A stretch of 32,000 nt of DNA from Promethearchaeum syntrophicum. GTDB lineage: Archaea > Asgardarchaeota > Lokiarchaeia > Sigyniarchaeales > Promethearchaeaceae. The stretch covers positions 2,070,001 through 2,102,000 of the forward strand of contig NZ_CP042905.2 in the NCBI RefSeq assembly GCF_008000775.2. Direction: 5' to 3'. How positions within the stretch are numbered: position 1 is the stretch's first letter; every line of letters starts with the position of its first letter. Both the position numbers and the translations under genes were made by a program. Positions 6,179 through 21,021 of this stretch are shown in pieces. The notes beneath the pieces were generated by a model that was not told where the DNA came from, searched no databases, and saw only the letters and a program-made list of their open reading frames with translations.

Positions 6179-8233
6179 ATGAATATTAGAAATATACTTA
6201 ATAAAAATAGAACTAAGCAATTTTTTTTTCTATTTCTAATTTACATTTTAATTACCTTAGTGTCATTTTCTAATTTTTCATTTAAGCCATCAAGTTCTGA
6301 ATCTATTCACTTGAAAGTTGGAGCTTATGAGAACAGCCCGAAGATTTTTACCAACGAACAAGGTGAGATTGATGGTTTTTTCCCTTCGATTTTAGGTCAT
6401 ATTGCTGATAAAGAGGGATGGGAATTGGAATATATTCATGGAAATTGGAGTGAAAGTTTAGCCCTCCTTAAGGCAAATCAAATAGATATTTTACCTGATG
6501 TTGGTTTTTCATACGATCGTCAAATGGAGTATGATTTTAATAATGAATCTGCGATAACTGGTTGGGGTATTGCTTATACCCATGATGAATCAGATATCTA
6601 TTCTATGCAAGATTTAAAAAATAAAAAGATCGGAGTAATGAAAGATGATATTAACTATATTGGACCCTTGGGAATAAAAATTATATCTGATCAAAATAGA
6701 TTAAATTGTACTTTTGTTGAATATGATAGCCTTGAAGATGTTTTAACTAGTTTAAATCTCAAAATCGTTGATGTGGGCATCGTAAATGAGTTTTTTGGAA
6801 ATTTAAATGCTTATAAATTTGATGTGAAAAAAACTTCAATCGCGTTTAATCCTATCGATTTTAAATTTGCTTTTCCTAAAAATGCAAGTTTAAATTCGTT
6901 CTTGATTGAGAAAATAGATAATTGGTTAAAGACTTCTAAAAGTGACCTTGATTCTATCTATTATCAAGAAGCCGAAATATACTTATCTGATCAAGAAAGT
7001 TCAATTCCTTCATGGATATTCCCTAGCTTTTTAATTTTAATCGGTTTAGCTGCATTTTTAACAATTTCTGCAATGACTTTGAGATATCAAGTAAAAATTA
7101 GAACGAAGAGTTTACATGATTTAAACCAAGAATTAAGTACAGAATCAATCCAGAAGAAAAATCAATTAGCAAATATTGTAGAAAATTCAAACGATGGGAT
7201 TATTAGTGCTGAATTAGATGGAACAATTAGGTCTTGGAATAAAAGTGCAGAAGTTATTTTTGGTTTTTCATCAGAAGAGATTATTGGAAAAAAATTAGAT
7301 CTTATAATTCCGTCAAATCGTTTTAATGAGGTCAAATATATTATTGATAAAATAAAGCAAGGAGAGCCTGTCAATCATTTTGAAACTAAACTTATGAGAA
7401 ACGATGGTAAACTTCTCGATATATCAATAACAGCTTCTCCATTAAAAAACCTAAAAGGTAAAATTAATGGCTTTTCCGCAATTGGACGCGATTTTACAGA
7501 AACAATTGAGAGACAAAAATTATATCAAGACCAAATTCTAAAAGCCTCTAAATTTAAATCAGATTTCATGGCTTCTATGTCACACGAATTAAGAACCCCT
7601 TTGAATAGTATCATCGGCTTTACCGATGTCATTTTAGAAAGAATAAGTGGGGAAATTAATGAGGAACAAGATAAATACCTCACACATGTAAAAACTTCAG
7701 CTATGCTTCTATTAGATTTAATAAACGATATTTTAGATATTACAAAAATTGAATCGGGTAAAATGGAACTGAATATTGAAGAGGTCAATCTAAGTCAGAT
7801 AATTAGTCAAGTTGATACAATGATAAAACCAATATACATGAAAAAAAGCCTAATTTTTGAAGTGCAAGAAATTGATAAAGAGAAAGTTATTCGAGTAGAT
7901 CGGTTGAGGTTTAAGGAAATACTTTTTAATCTACTTAGTAACGCTGTGAAATATACAAAAGAAGGAAAAATTATGATAAAATTTTCAGAGGAAGAAGAGT
8001 TTTGGAAATTTGATGTAATAGATACGGGTATAGGAATCAAAAAAGAAAATTTTGACATCTTGTTCAAAGATTTTAGAAGGATTGCTTCTAAATATGTAGT
8101 GGCAACAGAAGGAACAGGGCTCGGATTATCTTTGTCTAAAAGATTAGTCGAATTCCATGGAGGAACTATTTCTTTTACCAGCACTTTCGGAAAAGGGTCA
8201 AAATTTACATTTACAATTCCAAAACAATTATAA
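6179..8233 (+). CDS. Membrane sensor histidine kinase: extracytoplasmic solute-binding-protein-like domain, TM, PAS, HisKA, HATPase_c
   Basis: N-terminal TM/signal anchor FFFLFLIYILITLVSF. An SBP_bac_3-like region follows (LKVGAYENSPKIF..GEIDGFFPSILGHIA..), then a second TM (WIFPSFLILIGLAAFLTISAM) and a PAS domain. The kinase core has H-box SHELRTPLNSIIGF, N-box LLSNAVKYT, G1 DTGIGI and G2 GTGLGLS. Confidence 0.9.
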   Translation: MNIRNILNKNRTKQFFFLFLIYILITLVSFSNFSFKPSSSESIHLKVGAYENSPKIFTNEQGEIDGFFPSILGHIADKEGWELEYIHGNWSESLALLKANQIDILPDVGFSYDRQMEYDFNNESAITGWGIAYTHDESDIYSMQDLKNKKIGVMKDDINYIGPLGIKIISDQNRLNCTFVEYDSLEDVLTSLNLKIVDVGIVNEFFGNLNAYKFDVKKTSIAFNPIDFKFAFPKNASLNSFLIEKIDNWLKTSKSDLDSIYYQEAEIYLSDQESSIPSWIFPSFLILIGLAAFLTISAMTLRYQVKIRTKSLHDLNQELSTESIQKKNQLANIVENSNDGIISAELDGTIRSWNKSAEVIFGFSSEEIIGKKLDLIIPSNRFNEVKYIIDKIKQGEPVNHFETKLMRNDGKLLDISITASPLKNLKGKINGFSAIGRDFTETIERQKLYQDQILKASKFKSDFMASMSHELRTPLNSIIGFTDVILERISGEINEEQDKYLTHVKTSAMLLLDLINDILDITKIESGKMELNIEEVNLSQIISQVDTMIKPIYMKKSLIFEVQEIDKEKVIRVDRLRFKEILFNLLSNAVKYTKEGKIMIKFSEEEEFWKFDVIDTGIGIKKENFDILFKDFRRIASKYVVATEGTGLGLSLSKRLVEFHGGTISFTSTFGKGSKFTFTIPKQL

Positions 8234-9574: not shown

Positions 9575-11077
9575 ATGAGTAAAAAAATTGTTTTTACGGG
9601 ACCACCGAAAGTTGGGAAAACTACTCTTCGAAAAATCTTTTTTGAAGGCGAAAATCCATCAAAACTGTTAGAGTATTCCTTAACACCCACACATGGTCAA
9701 GAATCCATCCTCCTAAATTTAAAAGAGAAGGTGGGTGTTTTTGATTTAGCAGGTCAAGAAAATCAACGGTGGTATGAAACAGAAGCAAAATCAGTATTCT
9801 TTGATACACAAATTATTATTGTGGTGTTAGATAGTTCATCTCCTAAAGAAGAAATCGTGAAATTTACTAAAAAAGTATTAAAATTAAGAGATGAAATAAC
9901 GCCTTCTTCATTTGTTTATTTACTCCTCCATAAAATTGACTTAATCTCAAAAGATAAATTAAAAATAATAAAAGATAAGGTCAACGATGAGTTTCAGGAT
10001 GTGAATTTATTAGAAATCGCTTATACAAGTATTATGAAATATTCATTTTTACCAACTTTTACATTATTTACAGAGATATTAAAGTTAAGCTTAGGAATTA
10101 AAAAAGATGAAAATGAAAAATATAGTCTTAAATTTCTTGAATATGTAGTAAGTATATTAAATATTATCGATCAAAATGTGGTAATCCCAAAAGAAGATAT
10201 AAAGAGAGATTTGAAACTTCCTGATAAAATTTTCAATAATTTTATTGAATATTTAGAGAAAATGGAGTTTTTAGAAGCTTCAAAATTAAATAAAAAACCT
10301 GTGATATCATTAACTAAGGCTGGTAAAAATTATATTAATGAAATAGTAGGAAAATTCTCTATAGAATCCATACAGAATTTCAAAAACAATATAGAAGAAT
10401 CAAAATTTGAGGAAATTCCTTCGTTCTTAGGATTTTTAATTGCGGATAGGAATGGAAGAACCATCTCGGCTACTGAAGTATATGAAGGAGCTTTTGGTTT
10501 ATTTTTAAAGTATAATGATGAGGTAGAAAAAGGAAATGAACTGGATTTAATTCCTATGTTTATCAGTGCATTAGAAAAGTTTGCGGAAGAAATTAATATA
10601 ATGGATTTACCAGGCTTTAAATTAGAAGGTTCAAATCTCAAAATTCATACAATAAAATATGATATTTGCACACTCTGCCTCTTTATGAGAAATGATGTTA
10701 ATTTCAATTCTGTTAAAAAAGAAGTATTTGCCTGGTTTGATAATTTGATGGAAACCTATCAAGATAAATTAAAACAGAGTATTGAAAGTGGAAACATGGT
10801 TTATTCTAGTAGTCTGCATAGTGAAGCTAAGAAATGGTTAGAGCAAATGAACAAAAACTATGACGATTTGCTGATAAATTTAAAAATCTATAATTTTGAA
10901 CATGTAAAGAAACTGTATCAGAAATTAGATGAGCTTTATTTAAAAATTGATTTTAAATATTCAATGATTCTGGAAAAATTAAAAAAGTTGAAAATAAATT
11001 TGATGGAATCTGCAATGGATAATAATTTTCAAAGTTTTAAAGATATCGTAAAGAAAATAAAAGAATTAGATTCTTAA
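9575..11077 (+). CDS. Rag/Gtr1-like small GTPase fused to a putative winged-helix, a roadblock/LC7-like domain and a C-terminal coiled coil
   Basis: G1 GPPKVGKTT, G3 FDLAGQE and G4 variant HKID (the HKxD form typical of Rag/Gtr1). The wHTH-like part is PKEDIKRDLKLPDKIFNNFIEYLEKMEFLEAS..ISLTKAGKNY. The roadblock-like part is FLGFLIADRNGRTISATEV...LIPMFISALEKFAEEI...LEGSNLKIHTIKYDICTLCLFM. The tail is heptad-rich. Confidence 0.75.
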   Translation: MSKKIVFTGPPKVGKTTLRKIFFEGENPSKLLEYSLTPTHGQESILLNLKEKVGVFDLAGQENQRWYETEAKSVFFDTQIIIVVLDSSSPKEEIVKFTKKVLKLRDEITPSSFVYLLLHKIDLISKDKLKIIKDKVNDEFQDVNLLEIAYTSIMKYSFLPTFTLFTEILKLSLGIKKDENEKYSLKFLEYVVSILNIIDQNVVIPKEDIKRDLKLPDKIFNNFIEYLEKMEFLEASKLNKKPVISLTKAGKNYINEIVGKFSIESIQNFKNNIEESKFEEIPSFLGFLIADRNGRTISATEVYEGAFGLFLKYNDEVEKGNELDLIPMFISALEKFAEEINIMDLPGFKLEGSNLKIHTIKYDICTLCLFMRNDVNFNSVKKEVFAWFDNLMETYQDKLKQSIESGNMVYSSSLHSEAKKWLEQMNKNYDDLLINLKIYNFEHVKKLYQKLDELYLKIDFKYSMILEKLKKLKINLMESAMDNNFQSFKDIVKKIKELDS

Positions 11078-11182: not shown

Positions 11183-12319
11183 TTAACGTTTTAAATAAAT
11201 CGACACAATATCTCCATCTTCTAAATTATGGTCTGTTTGTATAAATTTTTGCCCTGGATGTTTGGCAGATTTTCCCCAGACTAATGCATATCGGTAGTTA
11301 ATTAAGAACCTTTTGTGCAGTTTCAAGCAAAGCTTTTTAATATTATCTCCTTTATGAAGAATGATAGGTTCACTCATATCAACCTCTTTTTGAGGGGGTT
11401 TTAGGTAAACACGGATTAATTCCAGCTCTTGAAAAATTTGATGTCGTAATTTATCAATATTTTCTTTATTCAGAGCTGAAATTTTGACCCAATGATTGTG
11501 CCCGATTTTGTTTGTGATTTCTTCATCTTTTATTTTCTTTTTTGCTAAATCTTTTTTGTTTATAACTACAAATTCCTTTGTATAGATTCGATTTCCCATT
11601 ATATGGTCAATCAGCTGATCTGGAGTTACATGAGGTTCAGAAAAATATACACTTGCGTTGCTAAAACCCATTTCATTTAGAATTCCCTTTACTTCTTCCC
11701 GATCCATATCTTGATGTCCATTATATGTAAATCCAATTCCACCACGATTTGTCTTTGTTATCTGAATTCTGGGGGGTTTTTCATTTAAACGCATTCCTGC
11801 ATTAAAAAGTTCTTGTCTTATAGTTGTAAGGTGGGAAAATTCAATGGACCCATCTGGAAGAAAACAAATCAAATTTAAAATCAAATCAGCACTACGAACC
11901 GCACCGAGAATTTCTCTCCCTCTCCCTTTTCCACTTGCTGCTCCAAGAATAATACCAGGTAGATCGATCAGCTGTATTTTTGCTTCTTCTATATCCATCA
12001 TTCCAGGAATCGCTGTTAATGTGGTGAAATCATAAGATGCAACTTTTGAATCTGTATTTCCTCTTGTAAGAAGGTTAAGTAGAGAAGATTTCCCTACTGA
12101 TGGAAATCCAATAAACGCTACTTGGGAATCTCCCGTTTTCTTAACCCCAAATCCAGAACCTCCTCCTTTTTTGGAAGTTGCAATTTTGATGAGGTCATTT
12201 CGGAGCTTTGCAATTTGTGCTTTCGTATAATTTATTGCTTTCTGCGTAGCTTTATTTTTTTGAGTGCGACTAAGCCGTTCTTCAAAATCCCGAATTTTCT
12301 CTTCTATTTTTTCACTAAT
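11183..12319 (-). CDS. drg: DRG-family (developmentally regulated GTP-binding protein, Obg-like) GTPase with C-terminal TGS domain; proposed non-canonical ATT start
   Basis: The track ORF (11183-12001) begins at MMDIEEAKIQLIDLPG, which is the G3 motif. My translation shows the same frame stays open upstream to 12325. That stretch encodes ISEKIEEKIRDFEERLSRTQKNKATQKAINYTKAQIAKLRNDL...VAFIGFPSVGKSSLLNLLT, the DRG N-terminal helix plus the G1 P-loop. The TGS-like C-terminus is IRVYLKPP...GDIVSIYLKR. There is no ATG/GTG/TTG between the in-frame TGA (12326-12328) and 12001. Confidence 0.8.
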   Translation of the reverse strand: MSEKIEEKIRDFEERLSRTQKNKATQKAINYTKAQIAKLRNDLIKIATSKKGGGSGFGVKKTGDSQVAFIGFPSVGKSSLLNLLTRGNTDSKVASYDFTTLTAIPGMMDIEEAKIQLIDLPGIILGAASGKGRGREILGAVRSADLILNLICFLPDGSIEFSHLTTIRQELFNAGMRLNEKPPRIQITKTNRGGIGFTYNGHQDMDREEVKGILNEMGFSNASVYFSEPHVTPDQLIDHIMGNRIYTKEFVVINKKDLAKKKIKDEEITNKIGHNHWVKISALNKENIDKLRHQIFQELELIRVYLKPPQKEVDMSEPIILHKGDNIKKLCLKLHKRFLINYRYALVWGKSAKHPGQKFIQTDHNLEDGDIVSIYLKR

Positions 12320-13181: not shown

Positions 13182-14471
13182 ATGCCCAAAGGAATCGTTC
13201 TAGTTGGATGGGATAATAAAATGGGATCTACAATTGAGGTGAAATTCCCAAAGGATTATCAAATCCAAAATAAAAAAATAACTCAGTATTTGGTAACTCT
13301 ACAAACTTTCGGAAGAAGTTCAAATATTCAAATTCGAGATAATGAGGATATAATTTTAATTTTTGGTTATCCGGTAAGAGAAGGGCCTGCAAATTATGAC
13401 TTTATTATTGTAATTCTGGATAGTTTAGAGGAATCCGAAATTCCAAAAATTCAAAGTAAACTAAATCTTGAAGGAGGAAATATTTTAAAAACTCCCAAAC
13501 CTAAAAGATCAAAATTATTCCTGGATTTTGCAGGAAATTTCATCAAACAGGAACAAAAGAAAATAGTTTTTATGGGATATCCGAATTCAGGGAAAACTAC
13601 AACAAAATTATTCTTTTTTGAGAAGATTCAGAGTGAGAAACTTTTAGAAACTACATTTACGCCCACAAAAGGAATTGAAACGGATCGGTATAGTTTAATT
13701 GATTCGAATATTGCATTATTTGATACTTCTGGCCAAGAAATTGAAAGATGGTTTAACATAGATGAAACTCCTTTAATTGGTTCTGACCTAACAATTTTCT
13801 TTATAACAGCAATGGATTGGAAACGAAACCCAGAGAAGGTAAAAAATGATTTAAATAGACTTATTCAACTCTCTGAAAAACTTGATGAGTCTGATCACGA
13901 TTTAGTTCTATTCTGCCATAAATTTGATGAAATTACTGAGAATATAGAAGAATTTAAAATAAGTCTTATAGATTTCACTCAAACGTTAGATATCTCTGTA
14001 TTTTTCACTTCAATTAAAGATACGGGGAATTTTGATATTTATATTGGTTATCAACTCATGTTGAGAAAATTCTCACCACTATTTGCTTTTATAAATAATT
14101 CACTCAATCCACTTATGAGCAGGTATCAACAAAGCGGAAATCTCCTATTTATTCTCGATTCTGATTTCACTCTAATCACAGATTTTACTCATAGCATTGA
14201 GGATTTTGATGTGGCGAACATCCAACAGTTTAAAAGTACTACAATCAAAATGATGAAAATTATTAATTTAGATGATAATAAATCTAGTGATTTCATTACT
14301 TTTACTTACGAATCAAGTGCTAAAATAGTCGTTTGTTTAAGAATATCTAAATTTAATCCCGATTTTTCTTATGTTATAATGCAAGCTGATTCATATCAAC
14401 TTGTGGATGAAATCTATAAGGAATATAATAAAATGAAAGAGAATTTTACGTGGGTAGAGCATAATAATTAA
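13182..14471 (+). CDS. Three-part small GTPase: N-terminal longin/uDENN-like domain, Rag/Gtr1-like G domain, C-terminal roadblock-like domain
   Basis: The N-terminal ~100 aa (GIVLVGWDNKMGSTIEVKFP...DFIIVILDSLEESEIPKIQ) have an alpha/beta regulatory-domain pattern. The G domain has G1 GYPNSGKTT, G3 FDTSGQE and G4 variant HKFD. The C-terminal part is GNLLFILDSDFTLITDF...KIVVCLRIS. Confidence 0.7.
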   Translation: MPKGIVLVGWDNKMGSTIEVKFPKDYQIQNKKITQYLVTLQTFGRSSNIQIRDNEDIILIFGYPVREGPANYDFIIVILDSLEESEIPKIQSKLNLEGGNILKTPKPKRSKLFLDFAGNFIKQEQKKIVFMGYPNSGKTTTKLFFFEKIQSEKLLETTFTPTKGIETDRYSLIDSNIALFDTSGQEIERWFNIDETPLIGSDLTIFFITAMDWKRNPEKVKNDLNRLIQLSEKLDESDHDLVLFCHKFDEITENIEEFKISLIDFTQTLDISVFFTSIKDTGNFDIYIGYQLMLRKFSPLFAFINNSLNPLMSRYQQSGNLLFILDSDFTLITDFTHSIEDFDVANIQQFKSTTIKMMKIINLDDNKSSDFITFTYESSAKIVVCLRISKFNPDFSYVIMQADSYQLVDEIYKEYNKMKENFTWVEHNN

Positions 14472-14516: not shown

Positions 14517-15668
14517 TTATTCAGTTAAATTTCTTAATTTAAACACTTTTCTCAGTTCTGACATTACATCATTTCTATTCGGTTTAACTTTTTGTTGCAC
14601 TTTTTTCTTTGGTGGGGGAGGAGGAGGTTGAACTATTTGTTTATTTGATGATTTCACTTCAATATTTTTTGTACTTGGAATTTTTCCTAGATTCGATCCT
14701 CCAATTATACCTTTTAATTCTTGAAATTGATTCATTATTGAACTATTTAACTTAATTACCATTTCTGAAAGAATTGAAACTTGTTCTTCTAAATTTTTTG
14801 CAATTTTATCTGGACCGAAAAATTGCTTAAAGGATTTTGCAAATTCGGGCTCATTTGCATAGAAATTATAAATACTCGATTGAATTAATTCAAAACTAAA
14901 TTTCTTCTCATTAAGCGATGTTGAGATTATTTCAGAGATCATTTCTAAATTAATTTGAAAATCTACTTCTTGACGTATATCAGGATCTGATTTATGTAAG
15001 AGTACTAATACATATGGATTTTCTTTGAAATAACTCACTATATCTAGAATTTTATCAAAATATTCTATTGATTCATCAAAACGTTCCGAATCTTGGATAT
15101 CTATAACATAGATAATTAAATCGATATGTAAGAAAAATTCTTCTGGATTTTTTAAATAATCCTGCCTGTGGAATTCTTGTCCACCGAAATCCCATATCGT
15201 TAAATTAAAATTTTCAACTTCAATTTTTTGAATGTCCACTCCTTTTGTAGGAGGAAGATTAGTTATATCGCCAAATTTTGTTTTTCCTTTTAAGCTTTCA
15301 AGCATGGATGTTTTTCCTGCGTTATTAAGACCCAAAACTATTATTTTTTGCTTGGATTTTTTTAAATAAAGTGATCTTTTTTTCCATGCTCTTGATAATA
15401 ATTCAGCTGTTAAAATCCATTTTTCGAATAGTTCTTCACTAATACTAGTTTCTTTTGCAATTTTTTTAATTTTTTCAGATTTTAATTTTACAAAATCTCT
15501 AATTTGGGTGATTTTGTATTTTTTAAGTTTCTCTCCATATTCATTCTTGCATTCTTTTAAAACGCTTGGATTCATATTCAAAATTTCTGAAAAAGAATTT
15601 GGTGTTTTTTCAACAACAAGAAATTTCTTACAAAAAATATCGATTATTTTTTCTTTATCTGTTGACAT
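14517..15668 (-). CDS. Arf/Rag-like small GTPase with N-terminal extension, C-terminal coiled coil, poly-proline tract and WH2-like tail
   Basis: G1 GLNNAGKTS (Arf-like GLDxAGKT), G3 WDFGGQE and G4 variant HKSD. The C-terminus is ...QPPPPPPKKKVQQKVKPNRNDVMSELRKVFKLRNLTE. Confidence 0.8.
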   Translation of the reverse strand: MSTDKEKIIDIFCKKFLVVEKTPNSFSEILNMNPSVLKECKNEYGEKLKKYKITQIRDFVKLKSEKIKKIAKETSISEELFEKWILTAELLSRAWKKRSLYLKKSKQKIIVLGLNNAGKTSMLESLKGKTKFGDITNLPPTKGVDIQKIEVENFNLTIWDFGGQEFHRQDYLKNPEEFFLHIDLIIYVIDIQDSERFDESIEYFDKILDIVSYFKENPYVLVLLHKSDPDIRQEVDFQINLEMISEIISTSLNEKKFSFELIQSSIYNFYANEPEFAKSFKQFFGPDKIAKNLEEQVSILSEMVIKLNSSIMNQFQELKGIIGGSNLGKIPSTKNIEVKSSNKQIVQPPPPPPKKKVQQKVKPNRNDVMSELRKVFKLRNLTE

Positions 15669-15746: not shown

Positions 15747-18700
15747 CTAAATTAATTTCTTGGGTAATGTAAATGAAAAGGATGAACCTTCACCCAATAC
15801 ACTGGTAAATGTGATATGTCCTCCGTGAAGTTCAATTAACTTTTTTGTCAACATCAACCCCAATCCAGTTCCTTCAATAGATTCCACATAATCTGATTCA
15901 ACTCTCTTAAATTCTTGAAAAATAATTCCAAAATCCTCTGGTGCAATCCCAATTCCAGTATCAATTATTTTAAATTTCCAATTCTTTTCATCTTCCATAA
16001 AATCTAATTTTATTCCGCCTTTTTCAGTATATTTGATAGCATTACTTAAGAGATTTAGAAGTATTTCTTTAAACCTTATCGGATCTGCATTAATAATTGT
16101 GCCTTTTTCAAACCCAACTAACTCAAAATTCAATCCTTTTTTTTTATAAAGTGGTTTTACTTCGATTTCAATTTGAGAAACCAAATTCAATAAATCAAAA
16201 TCTCTGTACTTTAATTCTACTTTTCCTGCTTCTATTTTTGAAATATCTAAAATATCATTTATTAGATTTAATAAGTGTTCTGCCGATGTTCTGACGTTAT
16301 TAAGATAATGATCTTGTTTTTCGTTCACATCTCCATAGAATTTCTCAATCAAAATATCTGTAAAGCCAATGATACTATTTAATGGAGTTCTTAGTTCATG
16401 AGACATTGATGCCATAAAATCAGATTTAAATTGGGAAGATTTAATAAGTTGATCTTGATATTGTTTTTGCTGCTCTAATGATTCAGTAACATCACGAGAA
16501 ATCGAGGAAATTCCAACAATATCTCCCTTTAAATCTAAAATTGGGGAAATTGTCACATTAACACTTAATACCTTTCCATCTTTTCTAAGACGTTTAGTTT
16601 CAAACAATTTGTAGGATTCACCTTGAACAACTTTTTCTATTAAGTTGGGAATCTCTTCCATGCGATCAGGTGGAATCAACATGCTTATTGATTTTTCTAA
16701 AACTTCCTCCAATGCATAACCATATATTCTTTCAGCACCCTTATTCCATGATTTAATCATTCCCTCTTTATCCATGCTTACAATCGAATCTGATGAAGTT
16801 CCAACAATACTTGCTAATCTCTTCGTTTCTAATTTATATTCTATACTGATTATTCCTAATTTAATTCGTGTTAAAATTTCTTTTAATAATCTTTTTTCTT
16901 CATCTAAAAATTCCTTATTAATTTCATAAACTACCTCAATTTTCAATGGAATATCATTAATTTTATCAGAAATGGTTAATTTCCATTCGGATTCTTTAAA
17001 ACTTGTTGTTTGGGCTTGATTTTCTCCATAAATTATTTTTACCATAGTTATTTCTGGATATTGCCATGATGAACGAATCAGAGGTAGAACTCCATAGAGC
17101 AATTCCTTGATGGTAATGTCTGGTACAACTAAAAGACTGGAAATTCCATATAAACATTTTAATCCTTTAATCCTGACTTGAAGCATTAATTCGGATTCCA
17201 AAATTTGTTTTTCTTTTTTTTTCCGGTCAGTAATATCTTCAAATATTTCTAAAAGTGCCGGTTTTCCATTGAAATTTTCAATTTTTGTGGAACTAATCTC
17301 AAAATCTCGTTCTTCGTCAAATTTTGACAAAAATAATTTGTCCTCAAATTTTAAAGATTTAATATTCTGACTGAGTGATTTGTTTCTCAGTGGACACATA
17401 TCATCACATGGTTGCTCTCTGCCTCTTAAAATTTTATAACATATCTTCCCGTCAAGAATTCCGTCATATATTTTAGAAGAGCTTCTATTATGGAATAAAA
17501 TTTCATAATCTTCAGATATTACAAAAACGGGATAATTTAGAGTATTTAATATAATATTTAATTGATTTTTTGAATTTTCCAGCTCCCTAGTCCTTAATTC
17601 TACCTTTTGATCTAAATCCAAATTTAAATTTCGTAATCTGAATTCTGTTTCCTTTAATTTATTCTCCCGTGATTTACTTTCAGTAATATTTCTGACAAAA
17701 ACAGCAATTTTATTCTCATCATAGAAAAACAATCTCGCCTCAAAAATTTCAATTATCTCATTTTGTTGTTTTAAAGGAAATTCAACTACCTGTGGTTTTT
17801 TTGTTTTAAATACTTCTAAAGATTTTTCTTCAATCAATTTTGAAATCTTATTTGGAAAACCAATAAAAAGATCTTTTCCCAATAAATTATCTAAAGGAAC
17901 GTGAAGTAAATTTTTATCTCCGTGAAATTCCAAGACATCTCCCTTTTTAGAGAGTAATAAAAATAAATCAGGAATAGCTTGAAAAATGGTTGTAAATTTT
18001 TTAAGTGAATTTCTTAAATTTTTCTCATTTTTTTTCTGAATCTTATAATAACGCATTTTTGCGATTCCTAAGGAGAGATTATTCACCATTTTTGATATTA
18101 ATTCCACATCATCTTCATCGAATGTGTTTTTATTTCCTGAATATATGCCTAACACACCAATTACAATATTCTCTATAATGATTGGGATTGAAATTGATGA
18201 TAGAAAACCTGATCCATCGAAAACAGTTTTCCAATTTTTAAATTTTTTTTCTGCACTTAAATCGTTAATAATATAATTTTTTCTTGTTCTTATCGCTGTT
18301 CCGCTAGGACTTTGATCTTTTACAGATTCGGACCATGTAAATTTCAATTTTTTTCCATCATATTTAGAATTATCAAAGATATTATATCCAGCTAAAGCAA
18401 CTGGTTTTATTGATTTTTCTTCATCATATTGGACTAACCCAATCCAACAAAATTGGTAATTTTTAAATTGAATAATCTCTTCACAAAATTCTTGAAACAT
18501 TCCCATTTCATTTTTTGCATTTGAAATTAGAAAGTTAGTTTGACCTTGAATAAAGGTTAATTTCTCAATCTTTCTCTGTCGCGTTATGTCAGTTCCTAAG
18601 CTAAGAACACCTTCAATATTCCCTTTTTTATTATATACATTAGAATTATGCCATCTAATGATTTTTTCTAATCCTTTTTTAGTTTGTACAGCATTTTCAA

Positions 18701-18932
18701 AATAATCTACTTCTTTTTCACCATTTATCACCTTATTAAAAACTCTCTCCATTTCTTCCCTTTTAGAATGAGGAATACAAGTTTTGAACCAATTTTTACC
18801 CAATATTTCATTTTCTCTATATCCAAGTATTTTGTTACCCTTTACGTTAATATAAAGTATTTTCCCTTTTCTATCTAATTGTAGAACTATCGCATCAATA
18901 ATGTTCAAATATTTTCTATCGTTTCCAATCAT
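15747..18932 (-). CDS. Cytoplasmic multi-sensor histidine kinase (PAS-GAF-PAS-PAS-uncharacterised module-PAS-HisKA-HATPase_c)
   Basis: 1061 aa with no TM segments. It has PAS-like blocks, a GAF-like block (FCWIGLVQYDE...IGVLGIYSG), H-box SHELRTPLNSIIGF, N-box LLSNAIKYT, DTGIGI and GTGLGLM. Confidence 0.9.
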   Translation of the reverse strand: MIGNDRKYLNIIDAIVLQLDRKGKILYINVKGNKILGYRENEILGKNWFKTCIPHSKREEMERVFNKVINGEKEVDYFENAVQTKKGLEKIIRWHNSNVYNKKGNIEGVLSLGTDITRQRKIEKLTFIQGQTNFLISNAKNEMGMFQEFCEEIIQFKNYQFCWIGLVQYDEEKSIKPVALAGYNIFDNSKYDGKKLKFTWSESVKDQSPSGTAIRTRKNYIINDLSAEKKFKNWKTVFDGSGFLSSISIPIIIENIVIGVLGIYSGNKNTFDEDDVELISKMVNNLSLGIAKMRYYKIQKKNEKNLRNSLKKFTTIFQAIPDLFLLLSKKGDVLEFHGDKNLLHVPLDNLLGKDLFIGFPNKISKLIEEKSLEVFKTKKPQVVEFPLKQQNEIIEIFEARLFFYDENKIAVFVRNITESKSRENKLKETEFRLRNLNLDLDQKVELRTRELENSKNQLNIILNTLNYPVFVISEDYEILFHNRSSSKIYDGILDGKICYKILRGREQPCDDMCPLRNKSLSQNIKSLKFEDKLFLSKFDEERDFEISSTKIENFNGKPALLEIFEDITDRKKKEKQILESELMLQVRIKGLKCLYGISSLLVVPDITIKELLYGVLPLIRSSWQYPEITMVKIIYGENQAQTTSFKESEWKLTISDKINDIPLKIEVVYEINKEFLDEEKRLLKEILTRIKLGIISIEYKLETKRLASIVGTSSDSIVSMDKEGMIKSWNKGAERIYGYALEEVLEKSISMLIPPDRMEEIPNLIEKVVQGESYKLFETKRLRKDGKVLSVNVTISPILDLKGDIVGISSISRDVTESLEQQKQYQDQLIKSSQFKSDFMASMSHELRTPLNSIIGFTDILIEKFYGDVNEKQDHYLNNVRTSAEHLLNLINDILDISKIEAGKVELKYRDFDLLNLVSQIEIEVKPLYKKKGLNFELVGFEKGTIINADPIRFKEILLNLLSNAIKYTEKGGIKLDFMEDEKNWKFKIIDTGIGIAPEDFGIIFQEFKRVESDYVESIEGTGLGLMLTKKLIELHGGHITFTSVLGEGSSFSFTLPKKLI

Positions 18933-18983: not shown

Positions 18984-19616
18984 TTACTTCATGCCTTCTG
19001 GTGAAAACATATTATTTAACACATTTTCTATCTCTTTAGCGGATTCTCTCATCATTTTAATATAATTTAAAAAATCTCCTTCTGAAATTTCAGTTTTTTG
19101 TTCTATGATTAAATCACAAAATCCTAAAATCGTGTTAACTTCGCCTCTAATTTTAACATTAAAAGATTCTAAAGGCACTAAATATTCCTTATTCATAAAC
19201 ATTGAATGAATTTTAACAAAAAAATCCAAAAATGCAGCATTATCATCAGTTAAAATTCGTTTGGTTCCAATCTTTCGAAATAATTCTTCAATTTGCTGAA
19301 AAATAAATGTAGATATCACTGGTAATTCTGCATCTCTTAAAAATATTAAAGCATAAGATTGTTTTCCTCCTCTTGCACTTGCATCTTCCACTTCTATTTT
19401 GCAAACTTGAGAATAAAATTTCTTATAATCTAAATAAACATATTTATTAGTTGTATTCAACGAATCTCGAAGTAAATCTCTGATGAAATCTTCATCTTTA
19501 ATATCGATTGATGAATAAAGAGATGTAGGACCTAAGATCTGGTCATATTTTCCAATAATTAATAAAAATTGCTCTTTATCTAGCCATTTTTTGAAATTGC
19601 TGTATTTTTCCGACAT
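18984..19616 (-). CDS. Longin/roadblock-like domain protein with a C-terminal His-less DHp (HisKA-like) helix pair
   Basis: The N-terminal part is FLLIIGKYDQILGPTSLY...SYALIFLRDAELPVISTFIFQQIEELF. The C-terminal NVKIRGEVNTILGFCDLIIEQKTEISEGDFLNYIKMMRESAKEIENVLNNMF aligns by eye to MSHELRTPLNSIIGFTDILIEKFYGDVNEKQDHYLNNVRTSAEHLLNLINDIL of the adjacent kinase, with Val at the phospho-His position. Confidence 0.55.
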   Translation of the reverse strand: MSEKYSNFKKWLDKEQFLLIIGKYDQILGPTSLYSSIDIKDEDFIRDLLRDSLNTTNKYVYLDYKKFYSQVCKIEVEDASARGGKQSYALIFLRDAELPVISTFIFQQIEELFRKIGTKRILTDDNAAFLDFFVKIHSMFMNKEYLVPLESFNVKIRGEVNTILGFCDLIIEQKTEISEGDFLNYIKMMRESAKEIENVLNNMFSPEGMK

Positions 19617-19695: not shown

Positions 19696-20091
19696 TCATA
19701 TCCTTAATAAGTTTTGAATTTTCTCTCTAAAATTTTTAATAAGTAATGGCTTTGATATATAATCATTAAAGCCAGATTCTAATATTCGTTCCTTATCTCC
19801 TTTCATAGCAAATGAAGTTACAGCAATAATAGGAGTTTTATTAAATTTTTTATCTTTTCGAAGTTGTTTACAAATATCTGTTCCACTTATATCGGGAAGT
19901 TGAATATCTAATAAAATTATATCTGGATTACTTGAATATATTAAATTAAGACCATCTCTGCCAGTAGCTGAGGTTAGAATTTCTAAATTTGGGATAGTCG
20001 CTAAAACTGCTACAAATAATTCCAGATTTTTTTCATTATCTTCGATGATATATATTTTCTTCTTCAAATTATTTCCTCCATTTTCATGCAC
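19696..20091 (-). CDS. Single-domain CheY-like response regulator receiver (first gene of a 4-gene co-directional array)
   Basis: KIYIIEDNEKN...IILLDIQLPDISG...TPIIAVTSFAMKGDKERILESGFNDYISKPL. An alternative TTG start sits after an internal GGAGGA (..AATGGAGGAAATAATTTG..). Confidence 0.9.
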   Translation of the reverse strand: MHENGGNNLKKKIYIIEDNEKNLELFVAVLATIPNLEILTSATGRDGLNLIYSSNPDIILLDIQLPDISGTDICKQLRKDKKFNKTPIIAVTSFAMKGDKERILESGFNDYISKPLLIKNFREKIQNLLRI

Positions 20092-20634: not shown

Positions 20635-21021
20635 ATGGAAAAAAAACAAACAATTCGGAAAATTATTTTTTTAAGTATGCTTTTACTAAATCTTTTTGTA
20701 ATTTCTATAGCGGTTAGTGAAAATTCGGAAACAATTTTAGATTTTCGAGATGATTTAACTAGTAATTTTGACTCAACTACAATTCAAAAAGAAGAAAATG
20801 GTGGCGGTGGACCGCAGAGTGTCCCAGAGGATTATATGATCATAATCCAAAAAGAAGACAATGGTGGTGGTGGACCGCAGAGTATCCTAGATGACTATTT
20901 GATCTTAATCCAAAAAGAAGACAATGGTGGTGGTGGACCGCAGAGTGTCCCAGAGAATAATTTGATCATAATTCAAAAAGAAGATAATGGTGGCGGTGGT
21001 CCACAATTAATTGAAATTTAA
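20635..21021 (+). CDS. Small secreted protein with four tandem 21-aa IQKE[ED]NGGGGPQ repeats
   Basis: The N-terminal signal-like segment is KIIFLSMLLLNLFVISIAVSE. It is followed by IQKEENGGGGPQSVPEDYMII / IQKEDNGGGGPQSILDDYLIL / IQKEDNGGGGPQSVPENNLII / IQKEDNGGGGPQLIEI. Confidence 0.75.
   Translation: MEKKQTIRKIIFLSMLLLNLFVISIAVSENSETILDFRDDLTSNFDSTTIQKEENGGGGPQSVPEDYMIIIQKEDNGGGGPQSILDDYLILIQKEDNGGGGPQSVPENNLIIIQKEDNGGGGPQLIEI
20782..21006 (+). repeat. In-frame 63-nt tandem repeat, about 3.6 copies
   Basis: The units attcaaaaagaaga[ac]aatggtgg[ct]ggtggaccgcagagt... recur at a 63-nt period within the CDS at 20635-21021. Confidence 0.85.

Follow-up and report, generated by a model that had tools for sequence, protein, structure and literature searches.

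A 32,000-nucleotide stretch of the Promethearchaeum syntrophicum MK-D1 genome (NZ_CP042905.2, positions 2,070,001 to 2,102,000; hereafter the window) contains, at 18984..19616 on the minus strand, an open reading frame (ORF) whose product is 100% identical to DSAG12_02452 (P0001 among the proteins collected here), a protein of 210 amino acids (aa) annotated in databases as 'hypothetical protein'. Here, we describe the two domains of this protein, the conservation of their motifs and the linkage of its gene to GTPase and two-component genes. The C-terminal domain is a dimerisation and histidine phosphotransfer (DHp) hairpin derived from HisKA, without the phospho-accepting His and without an ATPase domain. 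The N-terminal domain, as read from motifs, profiles and a predicted fold, is a longin of the folliculin/NPRL2 GTPase-activating protein (GAP) type, a class whose members provide Rag/Arf-type GTPases with an arginine finger. DSAG12_02452 is probably a dimeric GTPase regulator and likely a GAP, its degenerate H-box helix may dock a receiver or a kinase, and it plausibly links a bacterial-style phosphorelay to eukaryote-style GTPases.

Relatives were gathered by an indexed protein search together with an exhaustive search of cluster representatives, and form a narrow family of proteins of ~205-230 aa (88 clusters at 90% identity, 34 representatives at 50%). A fragment of a split kinase gene was considered for the ORF and rejected, since a stand-alone ORF of ~210 aa is kept in 126 distinct full-length sequences.

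The C-terminal hairpin

The hairpin occupies residues 149-201 (19014..19172, minus strand) and was delimited with alignments, profiles and an AlphaFold2 monomer model (predicted local distance difference test score, pLDDT, 84.7 overall), in which two helices at residues 149-172 and 179-201 have pLDDT values of ~77-93. The same two-helix hairpin is predicted for P0113, a protein of a sister clade described below. An earlier note on this DNA, made from its letters without database searches, had aligned residues ~150-205 by eye (residues 150-205 correspond to 19002-19169) with the DHp domain (16224-16427, minus strand) of the histidine kinase encoded next door at 15747..18932, and had read the phospho-accepting His as replaced by Val and the ATPase domain as absent. 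These observations hold up: BLASTP between the two whole proteins pairs residues 149-204 with kinase residues 840-895 in the same register (29.3 bits, E=2e-4, 16/57 identical, 67% positives), the 14 identities listed in the note are exact, Val154 falls on the kinase His both in BLASTP and in profile alignment, and the protein stops 5-9 residues past the hairpin with no Pfam match to HATPase_c.

Ungapped alignment of residues 152-204 with kinase residues 841-893 gives the 14 identities and a BLOSUM62 score of 64, a score matched by 0 of 100,000 shuffles, with the identity count matched by 1. In hhalign, alignment of a profile of the family C-terminus (65 columns) to one built from the DHp domains of 16 kinases in Lokiarchaeal loci gave a probability of 92.8%, P=3.9e-7 and a score of 37.1 over 53 columns, against a mean of 10.3 (standard deviation 2.1, maximum 19.3) in 200 column shuffles and 14.3 for the reversed alignment. 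The hairpin of DSAG12_02452 is most similar to the DHp domains of the local kinases. The HisKA profile search that the earlier note proposed as a check thus divides: the kinase DHp profile supports the relationship, whereas Pfam HisKA, which is the second most frequent Pfam match in the family (25/43 members, best E=5.4e-4, ~20 bits), covers residues 160-203 of DSAG12_02452 at only 12.3 bits (E=0.19), below the cut-off of 26.9.

That an unrelated helical hairpin came to resemble HisKA through convergence or chance is, in our judgement, most improbable. A two-helix hairpin is a non-discriminating fold, Pfam HisKA stays under its cut-off in all members, and sequence searches of the PDB, run with DSAG12_02452 by itself, with a profile of the whole family and with one of the N-terminal part only, returned no significant match, the best DHp match being kinase 7n0e at E ~0.3. 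Against chance stand the shuffle and reversed controls just given, an H-box register that is consistent across every method, and relatives that keep His in the same alignment column. A transitive link through clear HisKA repeat proteins adds to these: an exhaustive search of 1.8 billion cluster representatives with the family profile recovers proteins made of tandem repeats without the His, P0107 (E=2e-19), P0117 (E=2e-6) and P0119, and P0117 itself scores 76 bits on Pfam HisKA. Foldseek matches to LOV-kinase chimeras and CorA span the whole length of the model at root-mean-square deviations >20 Å, and were not used as DHp evidence. The metagenomic P0107, P0117 and P0119 consist only of 3-6 tandem HisKA repeats with His replaced by Phe ('SF(K/E/N)LRTxLNxIxGFxEL'), with a Gly/Ala-rich hydrophobic N-terminus in P0107.

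The phospho-acceptor position (H), Val154 in DSAG12_02452 (codon gtt, 19155-19157, minus strand; placed by sequence and alignments), is Leu in 79, Val in 21, Met in 17, Ile in 7 and His in 2 of the 126 distinct sequences. Position H+1 holds Gln (86), Lys (28, including Lys155 of DSAG12_02452), Asn (6), Glu (5) or His (1), the acidic residue being lost to Gln, Lys or Asn in 120/126. The domain is a HisKA homologue and yet not a functional HisKA, because the His, the acidic H+1 residue and a catalytic and ATP-binding (CA) partner domain were all found absent; with these gone the hairpin can neither be autophosphorylated nor receive a phosphoryl group at this position, and is excluded from kinase and phosphotransferase chemistry. 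Position H+4 is Ser in 117, Gly in 5 (MK-D1 included) and Thr in 4 sequences. No variation is seen at H+3 (Arg), H+8 (Thr), H+9 (Ile), H+11 (Gly) and H+12 (Phe).

Retained H+4 residues bear on a different reading, in which the hairpin is a phospho-receiver phosphatase like the isolated DHp domains of EnvZ and NtrB and the longin merely localises or regulates it. In those proteins the DHp alone suffices for phosphatase activity, which needs a hydroxyl or amide at H+4, and the acidic H+1 residue is needed for the kinase reaction only (PMC3510030). Ser or Thr at H+4 in 121/126 sequences and the loss of acidic H+1 would both suit a phosphatase. The canonical H+4 residue, however, is Thr or Asn and not Ser, the MK-D1 protein has Gly there, a bulky hydrophobic residue stands in place of the His, and the strong conservation of both the longin domain's GP motif and its arginine (see below) argues for a catalytic or regulatory longin. 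We regard a phosphatase as a remote prospect.

Conservation within the protein peaks in helix 1, which has an entropy of 0.76 bits (longin domain, 1.13; helix 2, 1.69). Its polar residues Glu150, Arg157 (H+3) and Thr162 (H+8) are invariant and Ser158 and Asn161 nearly so. The helix starts ~5 residues before position 154, after the invariant Pro148, and the part retained is therefore the lower, receiver-facing half of a DHp domain. Positions H+7, H+11 and H+12, which correspond to the EnvZ residues T250, L254 and A255 that set receiver specificity (PMC2991266), read N-G-F in the family, and the identical triad is found in 58/76 kinases of the loci.

A simpler view takes the hairpin as a dimerisation module only, belonging to a homodimeric longin GAP or regulator that has kinase neighbours through co-regulation or abundance. 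Longin/roadblock regulators do act as dimers, as in the dimeric Lokiarchaeal longin structure 8yqg, and the core positions H+2, H+6, H+9, H+12, H+13 and H+16 are hydrophobic and conserved. A bare dimerisation helix is nevertheless disfavoured, because helix 1 keeps the polar residues of the H-box/receiver face listed above and is conserved above the level of the longin domain. From this pattern we infer that helix 1 is a conserved docking face.

The longin domain

The longin domain covers residues ~16-141 (19194..19571, minus strand) and was recognised with AlphaFold2, Pfam Folliculin and Foldseek. The model has a longin topology of five strands with helices at residues 42-53 and 103-114, followed by helices at 118-122 and 126-141. 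The Pfam Folliculin family (the FLCN longin) matches 43/43 members, with DSAG12_02452 at E=5.7e-5 and 23.4 bits against a threshold of 23.3. The best Foldseek matches in the PDB, at E ~7e-6 to ~1e-5, are the GATOR1 chains 9v0j_A and 7t3b_B, which are taken as NPRL2 from their length (~362-370 residues); further matches are the longin of a Lokiarchaeal Roadblock-Longin protein (8yqg_B), DENND10, FLCN-FNIP2 complexes and Lst4. In the PDB sequence searches a weak match to CheY-like receivers recurs at residues 32-63 (E ~0.1-1), on the longin helix, and was taken as chance.

Two motifs refine this assignment. A GP motif, Gly29-Pro30 (19527..19532, minus strand), lies in the beta1/beta2 loop, flanked by strands 18-25 and 29-35, and is shared by 128/129 sequences of the family. 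The candidate arginine finger, Arg82 (19371..19373, minus strand), lies in the loop between strands 4 and 5 (residues 67-77 and 85-95) within the motif D-x-x-A-R-G-G-K-Q-x-Y, and ARG is likewise kept in 128/129. A 2025 paper (PMC12290439) defines the signature of the GAP-type longins FLCN, NPRL2, SMCR8 and C9orf72 as an arginine finger combined with a GP motif immediately ahead of the second strand, describes the GP motif as specific to this class, and reports both features in some Asgard longins. Arg82 is, on its position, likely the equivalent of the arginine finger. The earlier note had described the N-terminal half as longin-like and of a type that regulates small GTPases, a description that can now be narrowed to the folliculin/NPRL2 GAP type on the Folliculin matches, the GATOR1 structural matches and the near-invariant GP and Arg. 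The DENN or NPRL2 C-terminal domain is absent from DSAG12_02452, whose C-terminal half holds the DHp-like hairpin instead.

Distribution and gene neighbourhoods

The family is essentially confined to Lokiarchaeia. A scan of species-representative genomes found 49 loci, all labelled Promethearchaeota or Promethearchaeia bar two in bins labelled Candidatus Odinarchaeota; the family members in these two (L029 and L036) lie on short contigs of 3.7 and 3.2 kb, and represent either contaminated bins or a rare occurrence outside Lokiarchaeia. Some relatives retain the His, namely P0067 ('HHKIRSG') and P0079 ('HHEIRSG') in the main family and the divergent P0095 ('SHHVRA') and P0098 ('SHKIRG'). A sister clade of ~195-aa proteins (clade B) shares the GP motif and the arginine of the longin as well as the predicted architecture, with His in 5/7 (P0113, P0118, P0121, P0123, P0124) and Tyr in 2/7 (P0115, P0125). 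Drawing on these His-retaining relatives and the sister clade, we consider that the fusion most likely began with a His-bearing DHp and that the main clade lost the His later. In two relatives of 390 aa, P0100 and P0101, the longin and the hairpin are preceded by an additional PAS domain at the N-terminus and, after it, a helix resembling a degenerate H-box ('KSDFLRCILSDSLKSILDSIIQF'), and this PAS-helix-longin-hairpin order suggests that the fusion arose inside a PAS kinase.

ORFs were called in the window and in 57 fetched loci, and were classed with jackhmmer profiles grown from the kinase, receiver and GTPase domains of the window; neighbours were counted over 50 non-redundant loci. Directly downstream on the same strand lies a GTPase gene in 28/50 loci, typically 12-40 bp away or overlapping, and a PAS kinase gene in 13/50, the window included, with gaps of 25-210 bp. 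Upstream, a divergent gene for a GTPase of ~490 aa is found in 22/50. A GTPase or kinase is directly adjacent on either side in 46/50 loci, and both occur somewhere in the locus in 38/50, which bears out the conservation beside two-component genes that the earlier note had asked about. The modal order is [RHH-DHp-REC] [~490-aa GTPase] <-> [longin-DHp] -> [~293-aa Gtr1/RagA-like GTPase] -> [PAS kinase], and independent gene calls with precomputed Pfam annotations agree on this neighbourhood. The sister clade has four Rag-like GTPases, a hybrid kinase and a receiver as neighbours. Small GTPases make up ~2% of Lokiarchaeal genes, so that GTPase adjacency in more than half of the loci is far above that share. 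The neighbouring GTPases retain the DxxGQ glutamine and Arf-like P-loops, a pattern consistent with GTPases that require an arginine in trans.

The proteins that we call RHH-DHp-REC (~285 aa) combine a ribbon-helix-helix (RHH)-like N-terminus with a DHp lacking CA and end in a receiver. Their genes are found repeatedly two genes upstream of the family gene, for example at L031 4156-5019, L045 4177-5031 and L005 6824-7588, all on the minus strand. At the H-box position, His occurs in 9 and Tyr in 5.

These neighbourhoods return to the view that the hairpin serves dimerisation only. The commonest immediate neighbours are GTPases and not kinases, and the partner kinase is not a conserved ortholog, both of which fit it; a kinase, receiver or RHH-DHp-REC protein is, however, encoded within two genes of the family gene in 33/50 loci, and together with the conserved polar face of helix 1 this makes dimerisation without docking an unlikely explanation.

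The position beside a kinase also raises the prospect of a mixed four-helix bundle with the kinase DHp, or of capture of the kinase ATPase domain, by which DSAG12_02452 would be a dominant-negative partner or inhibitor set by the GTPase, with information flowing from GTPase to kinase. The hairpin is closest to the DHp of the local kinases, its gene lies directly upstream of a PAS kinase in the 13 loci counted above, and other CA-less DHp proteins, the RHH-DHp-REC type, are encoded in these neighbourhoods. But the hairpin lacks the stretch of helix 1 above the His that in kinases forms part of the upper bundle, and the partner kinase differs between lineages, and we hold a kinase heterodimer to be quite improbable. 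An adjacent kinase that is one class-wide conserved ortholog was rejected, as orthology of the sensor region (63-66% identity) extends only within the genus Promethearchaeum.

Within the window, the gene lies between a receiver and a kinase, as the earlier note had it, with both on the same strand. The single-domain response regulator (19696..20091, minus strand; Pfam Response_reg E=4.8e-23) is 79 bp upstream, and the PAS-GAF-PAS histidine kinase of 1061 aa (15747..18932, minus strand; Pfam HisKA 76.6 bits, HATPase_c 89 bits) is 51 bp downstream. An Arf/Rag-like GTPase of 383 aa (14517..15668, minus strand; Pfam Arf E=8e-24, Gtr1_RagA E=4e-22) follows 78 bp beyond the kinase and is the ortholog of the ~490-aa GTPase of other loci (36% identity, E=9e-74 to L031 5225-6724). 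It shares with these orthologs a conserved N-terminal extension of ~100 aa and a C-terminal tail with a PPPPPP run, a basic low-complexity region and a conserved terminal helix 'V(M/L)SEL(R/K)..F..R'; the tail might bind profilin, actin or membrane. The nearest relative in the window of the ~293-aa GTPase is a Gtr1/RagA-like GTPase of 500 aa (9575..11077, plus strand; Pfam Gtr1_RagA E=1.2e-14), with 36% identity over 245 aa to L031 7678-8559. Between its genes the window is AT-rich, and each junction shows both TATA-like and oligo-T runs.

Other genes of the window include one for a 429-aa protein (13182-14471, plus strand) with a central Gtr1/RagA-like G domain (residues 127-334), a C-terminal extension and an N-terminal alpha/beta region of ~120 aa that is possibly a longin or roadblock domain, to which the longin profile of the family gave no match. 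A histidine kinase (6179-8233, plus strand) has an N-terminal family-3 solute-binding sensor of the amino-acid type, followed by PAS, HisKA and HATPase_c, and shares the island with the Rag-like GTPases and the GAP-type longin. The frame of a DRG/Obg-like GTPase (MMR_HSR1_Xtn and TGS; 11183-12001, minus strand) extends upstream to about 12326, with ~95 conserved codons, including the P-loop 'GFPSVGKSS', preceding the first ATG; as this stretch holds no ATG, GTG or TTG back to the TGA, a non-canonical start (ATT or ATA) is likely. A 128-aa protein (20635-21021, plus strand) is hydrophobic at its N-terminus and carries the repeat 'IIQKEDNGGGGPQSVPE(D/N)Y(M/L)' four times in tandem.

Proposed mechanism and comparison with known systems

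The earlier note had suggested that the protein could pair with a kinase or sequester a receiver and so might couple the phosphorelay to the GTPases of the island, and those parts of its interpretation that are open to computation were borne out. The reading that we favour combines both domains. Two hairpins would pair into a four-helix bundle, joining two longins into a dimeric platform like those of longin/roadblock regulators, and the longin pair would act on the Rag/Arf-like GTPases encoded nearby, most probably as a GAP through Arg82. The conserved polar face of helix 1, which combines the degenerate H-box with the receiver-specificity positions, would dock a receiver of the neighbouring two-component system or possibly its kinase, and docking would let the phosphorylation state of the relay gate the GTPase cycle, or the reverse. 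For the whole chain, from dimerisation and GAP action on the neighbouring GTPases to docking of a receiver or kinase and mutual control of phosphorelay and GTPase, we see an even chance.

Several points weigh against this reading. The sequences show domain identity, motif conservation and gene linkage, from which dimerisation, GAP activity, docking and the direction of information flow are inferred. No family member tested reaches the Pfam HisKA gathering score; the MK-D1 copy has Gly at H+4 where the family has Ser; and N-G-F is the consensus of this kinase subfamily and hence no proof of a specific common partner. On the longin side, Arg82 falls on FLCN R164 in a weak hhalign match (P=0.003, probability 11%) to a provisional FLCN sequence, and in hhalign against a likewise provisional NPRL2 (probability 0.2%) the GP is matched and the arginine is one residue off, while the PDB sequence-profile searches recover neither FLCN nor NPRL2. 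The longin GAPs known so far work as heterodimers and bring along DENN or further domains. DSAG12_02452, unlike them, has no such domains and no recognisable heterodimer partner, and the profiles used picked up no second longin family in the neighbourhoods. As to linkage, by its sensor region the adjacent kinase is not a conserved ortholog outside the genus, and GTPase and kinase genes are abundant in these genomes.

Asgard archaea encode many eukaryote-like small GTPases together with longin/roadblock regulators, and how these are paired and controlled is the question that the family addresses. It offers a testable trio in a cultured organism, consisting of a GAP-type longin, conserved Rag/Arf-like GTPase neighbours and a putative docking hairpin of kinase origin, which directs attention to one particular phosphorelay. 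Were the coupling true, prokaryotic signalling would have fed into the ancestors of the FLCN/GATOR1 Rag-GAP machinery, and a pseudo-DHp domain would have been put to a new use. We also raise, as a possible but doubtful extension, that the family and its His-bearing sister clade are an archaeal prototype of nutrient-type Rag-GAP signalling, in which a folliculin/NPRL2-like GAP would be hard-wired to a His-Asp phosphorelay by way of the reused kinase hairpin and receiver phosphorylation would directly switch Rag/Arf-like GTPases, the GATOR1 and FLCN branches descending from a two-component-controlled regulator. We cite beside it the kinase with an amino-acid-type solute-binding sensor in the island.

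Earlier work comes close to parts of this picture. In a preprint, Liu et al. (2020, 10.1101/2020.10.19.343400) report NPRL2-like longins fused to two-component domains in Asgard archaea, and propose growth control centred on two-component systems with eukaryote-like regulators; the exact longin/His-less-DHp architecture may already be drawn in a figure of theirs. Published Asgard longins resemble the family in the GP motif, the arginine at the expected finger position, the association with two-component systems and the proposed Rag/Arf link (10.1101/2020.10.19.343400, PMC12290439), and the family is a member of the Asgard class of GAP-type longins. The accessible text of the two papers does not describe the His-less HisKA hairpin, the gene order GTPase-longin/DHp-GTPase-kinase or the His-retaining sister clade. 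Our literature search found no paper joining Asgard, histidine kinase, small GTPase and longin, and the papers on GAP longins and on Arf leave kinases unmentioned. GTPase genes of MK-D1 are generally not in operons with longin/roadblock genes, and their pairing is hard to predict (Tran et al., PMC10933270); the longin-DHp family is a class-wide exception to that rule.

FLCN-FNIP, the GAP for RagC/D, and the NPRL2-NPRL3 pair of GATOR1, the GAP for RagA/B, are alike in that their longins are the best structural match, with GP and arginine in equivalent loops, and Gtr1/RagA-like GTPases are encoded next to the family genes. They differ in that the family lacks a recognisable heterodimer partner and carries a kinase-derived hairpin where they have a DENN or NPRL2 C-terminal domain, and its GAP role is a prediction from motifs. 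In Caulobacter, the pseudo-histidine kinase DivL, with Tyr for His, senses phospho-DivK through its DHp and CA domains (PMC4211667). Like DSAG12_02452, it has a HisKA DHp without a phospho-acceptor and is a proposed reader of receiver phosphorylation, and Tyr is also the residue in the two sister-clade proteins named above; but DivL keeps CA and PAS domains and regulates another kinase, whereas DSAG12_02452 has neither domain and carries a longin.

Galperin et al. (PMC5847659) have described proteins of the type 'HisKA, no HATPase' in archaea, in which the His is conserved, and, for Lokiarchaeum, Arc-RHH-HisKA-REC proteins; the latter are the RHH-DHp-REC neighbours of the family genes. These and the isolated EnvZ/NtrB DHp domains resemble the longin-DHp family in having a DHp without ATPase and in possible receiver docking or phosphatase activity, and differ from it in generally keeping the His, where the family has Leu, Val, Met or Ile plus a longin. 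Phosphotransferases of the Spo0B/ChpT type differ through the phosphorylatable His, which is absent in DSAG12_02452 (Val154) and present in 5/7 sister-clade proteins and in P0067, P0079, P0095 and P0098. RomR, a component of the Myxococcus polarity module, contains a receiver domain. That module comprises the GTPase MglA, its roadblock GAP MglB and the RomR-RomX guanine nucleotide exchange factor, the last being fed by the Frz phosphorelay. It is alike in placing a prokaryotic Ras-superfamily GTPase under a GAP of the roadblock/longin superfamily and coupling it to receiver-domain proteins (10.1101/2022.03.17.484758), and differs in that separate receiver proteins provide the coupling, instead of a DHp joined to the GAP itself, with different families of both GTPase and GAP.

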